A stretch of DNA of 14,879 nucleotides from a virus (lineage: Duplodnaviria; Heunggongvirae; Uroviricota; Caudoviricetes): the IMG/VR virus record IMGVR_UViG_2667527789_000019; one strand, given 5' to 3'. A program made the position numbers. This document shows positions 9,001 through 12,000 of this stretch, in pieces. The stretch's first letter is position 1; the number at the start of each line of letters is the position of its first letter.

Positions 9001-12000
9001 GTTACGGCTGACCCTGAATGATTTCGCCCCGTGCAATTGAAGCACCCAGCGGAGTTATTCAGGGTTTTTTATTGCCCGTCCACCAGCACCACATCTGTAG
9101 CATTGATGCGTATACATTCGCCGTCAATTGCACCATTCCGGCCCTCACCGATCCGCAGCGAGAGCATATAGCCAGACGGCGGGAAATATGCCTTGCGAAC
9201 TTCAGGATGCTGTAAATAAGACTGTTGACGATATGGGAATCAGACGGGATCGGCGACATTACGGGTTATGGAAATAACAGCCAGGTAAATTGGTGAATAT
9301 ACGGCAGGCTGCAATCAGAGCCGAACATAGCGGCCTCCGTCACCATTATCAGACAGTAGCGGTAGTCCTTCCATCACAGCAAAATGCTACCCACTTCACA
9401 GCCCCTTGGAAGCCTCTTCGATGGGGTGAAAAATCCCTGAAAAAATGCGCAAAAAACTGCGCAAAAAAGTGCGCAAATCGATCATAAAACCGATCACAAA
9501 ATCGATCACACAGACAAACAGAGCAAAGCCAGATATGACGCGGCTTGCAGGGGGAAAGGCCACCGGAAAAAGTGCGCAAAAAAATGCGCAAAACGAAACG
9601 CAACAGCCGCGCAAAACGAAACCGATACGCGATGATCGAAAAAGCGCGCAAATTTACCGGATTCGGGTAAGCAATTTTGCCTGATTTGGGCAAAATACGG
9701 TGACGCCGTAACAGTGACATTGACACCAAAACAGTGACACACAGGAGGGCCGATGACCGAACGTTCACCAACAGAGATAATTCACGGGATTATTGAAGAG
9801 CAGGAGGAACGCGAGTTAATCCTCATGATTGAAGAGCAGAGAGAACGCCAGCGCAAACAGGAGGCCACGCAGCCGGACAGCGTGAGCGCTGAAAATCAGG
9901 CTGATGTGACGTGATGGTGTCGAACTGAGTAGCTTTAAGCGACTCTGTGACTGGTTTTAAACGAGTCGCAAAAAGAGCCGGAGAAAAACCACGAATCTGG
10001 GGTTTTTTCTAAGCACGCTGTACACGGTGGAACATATGGTGGTCAGGAGACGGCAGGAGCAACGCCAGAACGCGCCCCCGTACCAGTGGCATAAGCCGGA
10101 GCGGTTACGGCGGTAACTTGTTGATTAAAAGGCGGCTCAATTCTGAGCCGGGTAGCTGACGGCGTTAACTGGCTGATATTGTTACAAAGCTCATTTTTGA
10201 GCTTTGGCCTAACCTACTGATATTTTCGGAAACCTCAATTTGAGGAGACCGCAAACGCAAAATTGCGCTGGCTACATTCCTCACTTCTGAGGACTGTTAA
10301 CAAGCTGGCTGAAAGACAGTCACAAGCTACGAAATTTTCGTAGTTTAACTTTCATCCAGTGCATCCCTGAATTACGGGTATGTAACCACAGCTATTACGA
10401 GGTGATTGTTGATGCGTGATATTCAGCAGGTTCTGGAACGCTGGGGAGCGTGGGCGGCAAATAATCGCGAGAATGTGACCTGGTCATCCGTTGCCGCAGG
10501 ATTTAAGGGGATTATTCCGGCAAAGATAACATCACGCTCACAGTGCTGTGACGATGATGCGATGGTGATATGCGGGTGCATAGCCCGTCTTTACCGGAAC
10601 AATCGCGATCTGCATGACTTGCTGGTTGATTATTACGTGTTGGGGGAGACGTTCATGGCGCTGGCACGGAAACATGGGTGCTCTGACACCTGTATAGGTA
10701 AACGCCTTCACAAAGCGGAGGGGGTTGTTGAAGGCATGTTGATGATGCTGGATGTGAAGCTGGAGATGGATCGGTATGTTGAGCGCGATTCAGTGACGGC
10801 ATAACGCGCATAAAAAAACCGCAGTCATGAGGAAACTGCGGTGGAGAAATACGGCTTGCCAATCAATCATGAAAAACGTAATCGCCTGATAATTATGCCA
10901 CGAGACAAAGGACGGTGCACCCTGAATGGTCATAATGACCACTCAGACCATCGAGGCAACCATAACGAACATCGTTACAGTTGGAGCTTTTACCCCGTTG
11001 GGGGAAAAGGTGCATACCTGAATCATCATTATGGTGATCAAGGGCATGTAAAGCCCACCAGCCTGATTAAAGGTTAACCGGAAAAAGCCAGGTATGGAGG
11101 GAGTGACTAGCCACGAACAAGCCGGACACCACCAGCAGAAGGTATTATGATTTTCGTAATACCTTTAGCAAAGCGTGAATCATCATTACCGTAGGGATGG
11201 TCATAATGACCACACCTTCCCCCACCGGAACAAGGAAGGCTGGCTTACGAAAATTTCGTAACCCTCCCCAGCACAATGTATTAAATAATCACTACAGGCC
11301 ATTGATTAAACTTAATTATCGCGAATCGCGAGAATTAGCCCCGCCGGAACAAGGAAAGGGAAATTACGAAAATTTCGTAAAATCCCCCCACATCTCCCAC
11401 GGTTGCCCGTTAAGTGCAAGCGCACAGGCACGACCTCATTAACCAGTTACCAGCGCTCACGCTCAAACATCCACAGCAATGGGGATAAATCGCACTCTGG
11501 CGCAATGTTCACTATCGGGGCGAGCATTCACCGGAAAACGTCATACAGGCTTACAGGCGGCTTAAAATTCGATGGGCGGAGGACCGGATGGGAATCGGGA
11601 GACCTGGACAAAAAGTGCAGGCCTCCATGACACGGTCAGGACAGTTTGTGTTTAACCAGAATATTTAGCGCCTGTATTGGGGCTTCGTGGAGCTCCCGCA
11701 GACATTCAGGGTCAGTAACATGTTCCTGGTATCTTGTTTTCTCAAGTAACAAGCGGTGCATATGCAGCATACGGGCAAGAGCCGCGCACACCTCCTCAAA
11801 TGCGGTATCCCGCTTACCGTCACTGTCAGAGCCACAAAACAGCGGTACAACCTCCACGCCGTCGCTGTGGGCCTTTAGCCAGGCATCAACCACGGTTAAA
11901 TCATCGGTGAAGAACCACGCACTGTTAGCGCTGAATCGCATTTTCCAGGCTTCCGGTACTGGTTGCGGGGAGTATGAATATGCTGGTGGTATCTTGTCGT

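Follow-up and report, generated by a model that had tools for sequence, protein, structure and literature searches.

The window analysed here is a 14,879-nt stretch of DNA recorded as viral (Caudoviricetes; IMG/VR record IMGVR_UViG_2667527789_000019), which is 100% identical to positions 1128407-1143285 of Escherichia coli JNEC-KY174 (NZ_AP045170.1) and likewise to two further genomes of Shiga toxin-producing E. coli (STEC). The window starts directly past the tRNA-Gly gene glyU, and comparison with K-12 and strain 2015C-3121 places the right end of the inserted island at 12495. The element is a satellite at tRNA-Gly of an STEC strain that resembles the phage-inducible chromosomal islands (PICIs). 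Its right end contains an array of short palindromic cassettes, including three closely related palindromes of 17 bp (17-mers), which are the subject of this analysis.

The island encodes a tyrosine integrase, AlpA, Icd-like proteins, a DUF927 primase, SSB, a ProQ/FinO protein, a PerC protein, and a Q antiterminator. The integrase, alpA, the primase, the specific attachment (att) site, and the size of ~12.5 kb (within the ~10-15 kb of PICIs) are those of a PICI, but the island lacks a packaging/interference module (cos or terS/rpp, capsid genes), and its RefSeq annotation contains no capsid or terminase genes. The lambda cosN sequence GGGCGGCGACCT, searched with up to two mismatches, is absent from the window save for one near-match in a coding region; in the PICIs of CFT073 and DEC5A, cosN is located elsewhere. 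The region of the downstream 17-mers is an 830-bp stretch without annotated genes (10805-11635) that follows Q.

Palindromes at the right end of the island

The 15-nt core TACGAAAWTTTCGTA occurs at 10328-42, 11246-60, and 11365-79, and no other site in the window matches it even when up to three mismatches are allowed. These three matches compare with 0.24 expected, and none of 200 shuffles reached three. With its outer pair, the core forms 8+1+8 palindromes, TTACGAAAATTTCGTAA in the two downstream copies and CTACGAAATTTTCGTAG upstream of Q, with an unpaired central base that is flipped in CTACGAAATTTTCGTAG. An earlier reading made without database searches (the sequence-only reading) had reported two identical 17-bp perfect palindromes and a matching site upstream of Q, and their coordinates were confirmed. 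The direct repeat in which it had placed the downstream pair is real, but it measures 42 nt rather than ~50 bp, with 83% identity between the copies and a spacing of 119 bp. CCGGAACAAGGAA is identical in both repeat copies, and C-rich runs are present on both sides of each. A fourth site that had been counted as related is the near-palindrome GGTATTATGATTTTCGTAATACC at 11141-63, which has a 10+3+10 structure with one mismatch.

The 17-mers are not isolated. In the spacer 10805-11640, six palindromes are perfect and have arms of 6 nt or longer, compared with 0.64 expected (0 of 300 shuffles reached six), whereas three coding regions of the window contain 0, 0, and 1 such palindromes. The 300 bp upstream of Q contain seven further palindromes with arms of at least 5 nt. 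This enrichment across the spacer indicates that the sites of the sequence-only reading are part of a larger pattern. No helix-turn-helix gene was found beside the 17-mers, as that reading had also noted, and promoter-like matches around the sites were not above those in shuffled sequence. Rfam 15 gave no match in the window at the gathering threshold and only chance-level matches in 9900-12600 at E ≤ 10. On the minus strand, a promoter-like site at 11052-11025 and the terminator at 10842-10818 could bound an RNA of ~200 nt, which would cover the most conserved segment of the array.

An 81-aa open reading frame (ORF) at 11197-11442 was rejected as coding because a 119-bp indel in relatives, not a multiple of 3, breaks it, and because both repeats are gene fragments in differing frames and orientations. 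With no promoter signal above chance in addition, a transcript from 11200-11450, as had been proposed, finds no support. A dispersed repeat or miniature inverted-repeat transposable element, similar to repetitive extragenic palindromes, was rejected as well since the E. coli matches lie only at PICI right ends and in phage or prophage genes; relatives do show palindrome-bounded indels in this comparison. A scan of genome contigs with the bare 15-mer pattern returned chance matches across phyla, and the same scan of viral records returned a mixture of Staphylococcus-type operators and enterobacterial genes.

Phage antirepressor genes as the source of the cassettes

The enterobacterial-type IMG/VR matches to the 15-mer are located in ORFs of 232-352 aa with the motif ..NDF[IV]AR[IV]KDELxGExYE[NI]FV.. 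(hereafter the YE[NI]FV family), and the palindrome begins at nt 148-169 where the domain is N-terminal. This N-terminal domain has no Pfam match and was aligned by eye with the Rha domain of Roi, and the C-terminus is KilAC or another domain. In order to avoid circularity, 80 genes of the family were gathered by protein similarity alone. The 15-nt core is a perfect palindrome in 69 of them, and the remaining 11 deviate solely at the innermost pair. The centre of the core is A, T, or C, giving an N, I, or T residue, and a doubly changed form, TACAAAAcTTTTGTA, replaces E with K (YKTFV) in 11 genes. The core TACGAAAnTTTCGTA lies within a palindrome with arms of 9-13 bp, and changes in these arms alter the encoded residues. 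The outer arms vary from allele to allele yet remain complementary (GGGT/ACCC, ACC/GGT, CAC/GT., and TTT/AAA). In the pairing count, 88.6% of the cells were paired and both sides had changed in 7 of the 13 pairs, a result reached by none of 500 shuffles, and controls in which the partner was slid gave 30-53% paired. The compensatory changes, together with these controls, show that the constraint acts on the dyad symmetry of the nucleic acid and not on the peptide. The in-gene palindrome is thus kept by compensatory substitutions in the phage genes. Among 5426 complete E. coli genomes, 605 carry genes of this family, with matches at 219 chromosomal places, including O157:H7 prophages, and at 445 plasmid places, those listed being mostly on plasmids of 65-125 kb.

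Compared by blastn with 50,697 phage records, the spacer matched only antirepressor-type coding sequence, and the match lay 128-201 nt from the start codon in all four cases for which the gene context was examined (Table 1). Translations of the array include RFAKGITKIIIPSAGG, LIKLNYRESREL, SPQIEVSENISRLG, GEGYEIFV, and NYENFVKS. The window copies contain stops or frameshifts relative to the phage genes and are therefore non-coding. Downstream copy 1 (11245-70) is identical at 26 of 26 positions, in antisense orientation, to a YEIFV-family allele encoding ..LDGEGYEIFV.., and the Gly-Glu-Gly codons, in complement, make up its C-rich edge. In sense orientation, copy 2 (11364-86) matches an allele with ..YE.FVKS.. 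(22/23), and the copy upstream of Q is identical to a third allele with ..LNYENFVV.. (22/22). With high confidence, the three 17-mers are non-coding fragments of 22-31 nt from three alleles of one phage antirepressor gene family, the members of which combine a Rha-like N-terminal domain containing ..DELxGExYE[N/I/T]FV.. with a KilAC or other C-terminal domain. We are equally confident that the other cassettes come from Rha/Roi genes (palindrome and integration host factor [IHF] site), a P22_AR_N Ant gene, and a Bro-N antirepressor gene. The same holds beyond this island, as a second PICI array (L250) has roi matches in H-19B, HK620, HK75, Gally, Kapi1, and Stx (Shiga toxin) phages.

The sequence-only reading had named, as one outcome that would refute it, an origin of the repeats in a known repeat family or mobile element. 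This applies halfway, as the repeats are indeed fragmentary copies, though their source is phage genes. Its 23-mer derives from the P22_AR_N Ant gene and has a separate origin from the 17-mers. Among the binders it had named, namely AlpA, the island Rha-like protein, and a helper-phage protein, the last is the most likely. One candidate is found in strain 2015C-3121, which has the same island and also carries a lambdoid prophage with a 245-aa gene (L587 6998-7735; NZ_CP027340.1). At nt 148, this gene contains an 11-1-11 palindrome; window 11245-70 matches the gene at 26 of 26 positions, and its YEIFV product is a candidate binder or helper. The window's own host was not among the 60 best records in the search for co-occurrence of cognate genes.

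The island itself contains an ORF of 461 aa (2066-3451) in which a Rha N-domain is weakly recognisable. It has a 7-1-7 palindrome of its own at nt 198-212 of the gene, which occurs once in the window. The ORF has 24 homologues, is not annotated in RefSeq, and overlaps annotated minus-strand genes in its distal portion; it is probably a truncated Rha-family gene. A palindrome in the 5' part of the gene is accordingly found in all three Rha/Roi-type groups: at nt 130-142 in Roi, at nt 148-169 in the YE[NI]FV family, and at nt 198-212 in the island Rha-like ORF. The differing palindrome of this ORF argues against the Rha-like protein as the binder of the 17-mers, and AlpA as the binder likewise finds no support.

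The gene origin also bears on whether the two repeats could be replication-origin iterons or a cos/pac packaging site. Two repeats around an AT-rich stretch do have a superficial likeness to PICI origins (PMC6092414), but the AT-rich spacer between the two downstream 17-mers is the Bro-N gene fragment. Moreover, PICI origins are located immediately 3' of the rep gene (PMC6092414), which in this island, with the primase gene ending at 6320, would correspond to ~6320-6680, about 5 kb away from the 17-mers. This ~360-bp gap directly 3' of the primase gene, where the PICI origin is expected, contains IHF-consensus sites at 6372-6384 (minus strand) and 6588-6600 (plus strand). As lambda cosN is not in the window either, we give hardly any credence to a role of the 17-mers in replication initiation or packaging.

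Table 1. Features of the right-end array and related elements, in window coordinates.
Position	Strand	Feature	Source or remark
2263..2277	+	In-gene palindrome TCCGTTTCAAACGGA of the island Rha-like ORF	Codons LPFQTE; place equivalent to the Roi palindrome
10114..10150	-	Roi/Rha-type cassette 1: IHF consensus 10114-26 (-) beside palindrome CGGCTCAattcTGAGCCG 10133-50	Antisense strand encodes ..GSELSRLLINKL..
10166..10206	-	Roi/Rha-type cassette 2: IHF consensus 10166-78 (-) beside palindrome CAAAGCTCAttttTGAGCTTTG 10185-206	10165-10208 matches Rha/KilA-N gene sb54 of Salmonella phage ST64B (84%)
10208..10258	-	Roi-type cassette 3: IHF consensus 10210-22 (-) beside palindrome CCTCAAtTTGAGG 10233-45	Antisense to roi nt ~125-170, peptide SPQIEVSENISRLG; 10208-58 matches roi of Stx phages, peptide LPQIEVSERINNLG; real gene carries CCTCAAaTTGAGG
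10256..10293	.	Array palindromes CGCAAaaTTGCG (10256-67) and TCCTCActtcTGAGGA (10278-93)	Also in other PICI arrays
10318..10348	-	YE[NI]FV-family cassette with CTACGAAATTTTCGTAG (10327-43)	Antisense to ..LNYENFVV.. of Pocitis76-type KilAC antirepressor genes; 10327-65 matches that of Hafnia phage Pocitis76, the 17-mer coding for N-Y-E-N-F-V-V
10412..10804	+	Q antiterminator (Pfam Phage_antitermQ)	Within the cassette array
10818..10842	-	Intrinsic-terminator-like hairpin followed by T-run	Strong; right behind the Q stop codon, on the opposite strand
10879..10977	.	IHF consensus 10879-91 (-); palindromes TGGTCATaATGACCA (10927-41) and TAACGAacaTCGTTA (10963-77)	Beginning of the most widely conserved segment
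11048..11096	+	"End module" GTAAAGCCCACCAGC..TAACCGGAAAAAGCCAGGTA, copy 1	
11127..11176	-	P22_AR_N-type Ant gene fragment with near-palindrome GGTATTATGAtttTCGTAATACC 11141-63	Antisense (RFAKGITKIIIPSAGG) to Ant of Ss-VASD and Stx2 phages (Pfam P22_AR_N); holds the 23-mer of the sequence-only reading
11176..11212	.	Second copies of TGAATCATCATTA (11176-88) and ATGGTCATAATGACCAC (11197-213)	
11220..11270	-	Direct-repeat copy 1 (11220-61) with TTACGAAAATTTCGTAA 11245-61	
11267..11338	+	Bro-N antirepressor gene fragment (..PLIKLNYRESREL..) with its own palindrome TCGCGAaTCGCGA 11319-31	Sense; Bro-N antirepressor of phage GER2
11339..11386	+	Direct-repeat copy 2 (11339-80) with TTACGAAAATTTCGTAA 11364-80	
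12316..12362	+	"End module", copy 2	Adjoins attR
12479..12495	+	attR, copy of the tRNA-Gly 3' end TTCCCTTCGCCGCTCCA	Island right end

Ordered arrays in PICIs and their possible roles

Roi of phage HK022 reportedly binds a site in its own gene that is closely linked to an IHF site. IHF also regulates rha of phi80 and P22 (PMC4936722). In roi, a palindrome is located at nt ~130-142 (e.g., CCTCAAaTTGAGG, CTGCAtTGCAG in HK022, and the imperfect CCCCCAaTGGTGG in PA27), and the IHF consensus WATCARNNNNTTR follows at nt 153 in 5 of the 7 alleles compared. The roi of 933W has neither, and that of KpV79 has the palindrome alone. The most variable part of roi is nt 118-188. A sequence search of PDB with the Roi N-domain gave no match.

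The window contains seven IHF-consensus matches compared with one expected. Four of these are within the array, all on the minus strand, and three are spaced ~45-50 bp apart with a palindrome beside each, forming the Roi-type cassettes at 10114, 10166, and 10210. Across 47 unique PICI arrays (24.4 kb), exact IHF cores number 78 on the minus strand and 0 on the plus strand, compared with 0.7 expected per strand, and allowing one mismatch adds 45 more (control strand, 9). Of the 78 exact cores, 61 are adjoined by a perfect palindrome whose arms measure 5 nt or more, compared with 7 of 78 after shuffling. Half of the distinct units (28/56) match nt 116-175 of roi with 90-100% identity, and in every case the match runs antisense to the direction of the island genes. 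The PICI units CCCCCAtTGGGGG and TTTCCACCAtTGGTGGAAA (arrays L250, L254, and L244) are perfect, whereas the nearest allele in the phages compared (PA27, CCCCCAaTGGTGG; roi L478-L483) is imperfect. These units either derive from unsampled phage alleles or had their symmetry restored in the satellite.

Part of the spacer, mostly 10922-11102, is present in 993 of the 5426 E. coli genomes. In CFT073 and O55:H7 DEC5A, the homologous region is at the right end of a PICI beside phoQ, between the last gene and the island end. A degenerate pattern of the "end module" identified 66 IMG/VR loci, which together with the earlier loci give 51 unique arrays. Every array is a string of short perfect palindromes of many differing sequences, and such palindrome-cassette arrays are a conserved right-end feature of E. 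coli PICIs. The TACGAAA palindrome of the 17-mers occurs in 9 of the 51 at variable offsets.

The position of Q within the array appears to be secondary. The TGGTCATAATGACCA segment, which lies downstream of Q in the window, directly adjoins the Q-upstream palindrome with its left flank in DEC5A. The nucleotide sequence of Q is 90% identical to that of Stx1/Stx2-phage Q, a match confined to the coding region, and the C-terminus differs. The contiguity in DEC5A and the restriction of the identity to coding sequence indicate that Q was inserted into a pre-existing non-coding array, and the Q-upstream cassette is indeed found in Q-less PICIs (L245, L272, L285, and L012). Because the region downstream of Q has no similarity to the pR' region of Stx phages, no Q-binding element is proposed. 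The satellite carries this Q without late or packaging genes, and it may act in trans on the late promoters of Stx prophages.

These findings bear directly on the proposal of the sequence-only reading that the sites are three or four operators of one dimeric regulator, AlpA or the Rha-like protein, which would couple Q to a transcript from 11200-11450. In its favour are the identical 15-bp core in three sites, the location of one site 68 nt upstream of the Q start codon, and weak promoter-like hexamers that overlap the 23-mer. On the other hand, the Q-upstream cassette is older than Q, so that the link to Q dissolves into a later phage-derived insertion next to a cassette shared with many Q-less PICIs; relatives lack the second downstream copy and have a further copy that is absent here; the 23-mer comes from another gene family; the Rha-like ORF has a palindrome of its own and no RefSeq annotation; and 11200-11450 has neither a conserved ORF nor a promoter. 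An island-encoded regulon is accordingly very improbable. What can be retained is that the 17-mers are plausible protein-binding palindromes, but three alleles with differing outer arms do not support a single regulator with three or four sites.

The arrays are also unstable. The close relatives L246 and L247 lack 11262-11380, a segment that takes in copy 2, the Bro-N fragment, and the flank to the right of copy 1. Recombination between the 42-nt repeats can account for this 119-bp difference. Both relatives have 130 bp extra at 11118, and a gap of 24 bp in the window at ~11607 corresponds to an extra copy in them, GGGAGGC-TTA(C/T)GAAAATTTCGTAA-CCCCCC. RefSeq annotates a 68-aa "hypothetical protein" in both (L246 3290-3496 and L247 3288-3494) that overlaps the antisense Ant fragment and the 130-bp segment absent from the window, and this protein is probably spurious. 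The "end module" GTAAAGCCCACCAGC..TAACCGGAAAAA..CCGGTA occurs twice in the window, compared with one copy near attR in other PICIs. The intervening 1.2 kb, containing the 17-mer pair and a 124-aa minus-strand ORF without a Pfam match, resembles an insertion or duplication.

Such instability raises the possibility that the cassettes are recombination scars. During replication of phage and satellite DNA, palindromes would stall forks or extrude cruciforms, template switching or illegitimate exchange would follow, and patches of phage genes would pile up at a dispensable right end, leaving the 17-mers without a role. The shortness of the cassettes, their sharp borders at or near a palindrome, the repeat- or palindrome-bounded indels (the 119-bp segment, 24 bp at ~11607, and 130 bp at 11118), the duplicated "end module", the scarce TACGAAA cassette with its variable position, and the frequency of half-mutated copies all fit this explanation, as does the fact that the source segment in roi is the most variable part of the gene. 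However, the arrays are highly ordered, with a uniform orientation, 78 intact IHF cores against ~36 degenerate ones, and palindromes beside 78%. Furthermore, the region is partly retained in the ~993 genomes noted above, homologous arrays terminate islands at another site beside phoQ, and only antirepressor-type genes are represented, always by the same ~50-nt part, which is not expected of random capture. We consider scars unlikely.

The uniform orientation may instead reflect a function at the RNA level. A rightward transcript of the array would be a hairpin-rich RNA antisense to nt ~120-200 of antirepressor mRNAs and could lower them, possibly assisted by the ProQ/FinO-domain protein, in analogy to the control of ant by P22 sar or P1 c4. 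All 78 Roi-type units in the 47 arrays are antisense to the island genes, with 28 units antisense to roi nt 116-175, and copy 1 shares this orientation with the Q-upstream and P22_AR_N cassettes; copy 2 and the Bro-N cassette, however, run in the sense direction. The cassettes are 20-50 nt longer than a binding site needs, some being 96-100% identical to real alleles, and arm covariation is compatible with base pairing, but one-base centres make poor loops and the patterns of wobbles and mismatches favour neither strand. A ProQ/FinO protein is encoded on the island but absent from most array-bearing PICIs. A strong terminator on the minus strand (10842-10818) is present, although no promoter or terminator delimits the RNA, the promoter scan being not above shuffles, and Rfam, C4-type RNAs included, yielded no match. 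Lastly, the conserved IHF consensus belongs to the DNA level. An antisense function thus seems fairly unlikely.

Since an intact IHF consensus is a feature of DNA, it favours the interpretation that the cassettes act in cis as DNA. In the phages, the palindromes would be self-binding sites of Roi/Rha-type proteins inside their own genes, adjacent to IHF in the case of Roi. The copies in the satellite would bind Roi/Rha/Ant-type proteins of helper or resident phages, in addition to host IHF at the Roi-type units, with the binder not encoded next to the sites. The array may then serve as a multi-specific decoy or sensor that titrates phage regulators once the island replicates. Alternatively, it may form an architectural complex or a roadblock where the rightward operon ends. 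It lies just upstream of Q here and beside attR, and the proximity to attR would bring it beside int after circularisation. We tentatively prefer putative binding sites acting as decoy or sensor, at somewhat below an even chance.

Several observations weigh against such DNA-level binding sites. The outer arms of the three window 17-mers are degenerate, and no IHF consensus is located beside any of them. Of the 18 unique PICI contexts of the Q-upstream-type cassette, 6 have a perfect palindrome, 7 read TACG..CGCA, 4 contain two mismatches, and 1 is compensated (TGCG..CGCA), with flanks conserved to about the same degree as the core; the half-mutated copies and equally conserved flanks suggest that selection on perfect symmetry in the satellite is weak. 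The cognate gene is co-resident in 1 of ~15 listed island-bearing genomes, plus 1 with a related array. The covarying outer arms suit a hairpin or cruciform no less than a dimer site, and the single orientation of the Roi-type units, antisense to the rightward genes, is not required of a DNA decoy. In addition, the search for a source gene failed for several cassettes, TGGTCATaATGACCA among them: a scan for TGGTCATWATGACCA gave mostly chance contexts and no source gene, and the sources of TAACGAacaTCGTTA and of the "end module" were likewise not found.

A second island lies in tandem right behind attR (window 12479-14879) and encodes a site-specific integrase of 532 aa. The glyU site is thus occupied in tandem, beside the remnant of the E. 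coli type III secretion system 2 (ETT2).

Significance and comparison with known systems

Palindrome arrays of this kind are apparently undescribed, as no mention of them was found in the PICI literature searched, coverage of which was incomplete. The inducer of AlpA is unknown (PMC6092414), and how Gram-negative PICIs sense or interfere with their helpers is largely open, for which an ordered array, in part common to about a fifth of complete E. coli genomes, provides a testable handle. The right end may even be a library of operator cassettes from the antirepressor genes of many phages (Roi/Rha, YE[NI]FV, Ant, and Bro-N), serving as a heritable, multi-specific set of sensors, decoys, or antisense elements, although this broader view is doubtful. 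If it is true, the library would record past helpers in their own coding DNA, and one satellite could recognise or disarm the regulators of many potential helpers. In the phages, antirepressor genes would carry their own binding site within the codons of a variable segment, so that specificity and target travel together, and an in-gene palindrome kept by protein-altering compensatory changes would explain the hypervariability of this segment. As the STEC island carries a Stx-phage-like Q, the regulators of the array may also bear on the biology of Shiga-toxin phages. Were the array only recombination debris, it would still be a hotspot of palindrome-centred exchange between phages and satellites.

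The closest known site is that of HK022 Roi; alleles of HK022 and of Stx phages were confirmed to carry the palindrome at nt ~130-142 and the IHF consensus at nt 153. It is this segment that the Roi-type cassettes of the satellite reproduce, and the Rha-like sister family has the TACGAAA palindrome at the corresponding position. Unlike the HK022 site, the satellite sites are non-coding, detached from a cognate gene, derived from many alleles, and mixed with fragments of other antirepressor genes, and the TACGAAA copies, for which protein binding is putative, have no adjacent IHF site. The operators of lambdoid CI/Cro (17 bp, 8-1-8) share length, odd centre, and dyad symmetry with the 17-mers, and this shared form accounts for the label "operator-like" in the sequence-only reading. 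In contrast to them, the 17-mers are not between divergent promoters, have no adjacent repressor gene, are spaced 119 and ~900 bp apart, and have a sequence that is intra-ORF in phages. Staphylococcus-type phage operators (ATACGAAAATTTCGTAT; IMG/VR L022, L026, L029, L037, and others) have the identical 15-bp core. In these contigs a pair of sites, intergenic or in-gene and separated by 235 bp, surrounds a small XRE-type helix-turn-helix gene. As these operators belong to low-GC Firmicute phages and an unrelated protein, the likeness is most likely convergence.

Two other classes of regulation offer partial parallels. The P22 sar and P1/P7 c4 antisense RNAs have the same class of target (ant-type genes), and most cassettes are antisense to their source. 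However, the array has no defined RNA gene or Rfam match, its target is within the ORF and not at the ribosome-binding site, and some cassettes are in sense orientation. At datA and P1 incA, clustered sites away from the regulated gene titrate DnaA and RepA, respectively, with IHF as a cofactor at datA. These loci share the titration logic proposed for the array, but each addresses one host or plasmid protein, whereas the array would address many allelic phage proteins and would have been assembled from their coding DNA.

Among satellites, the Gram-negative PICIs EcCICFT073, EcCIEDL933, and EcCIMP1 share with this island int, alpA, a P4-type/DUF927 primase, SSB, PerC, a size of ~12.5 kb, and a tRNA attachment site. 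Unlike them, the island is without the capsid, terS/rpp, and cos module, in place of which it has a Stx-phage-like Q and ProQ/FinO. The right-end arrays of this island and of the CFT073 PICI are homologous. In this comparison, the 17-mers are ordinary copies of a phage element, and the interesting part is the array together with the covarying palindrome embedded in phage coding sequence.

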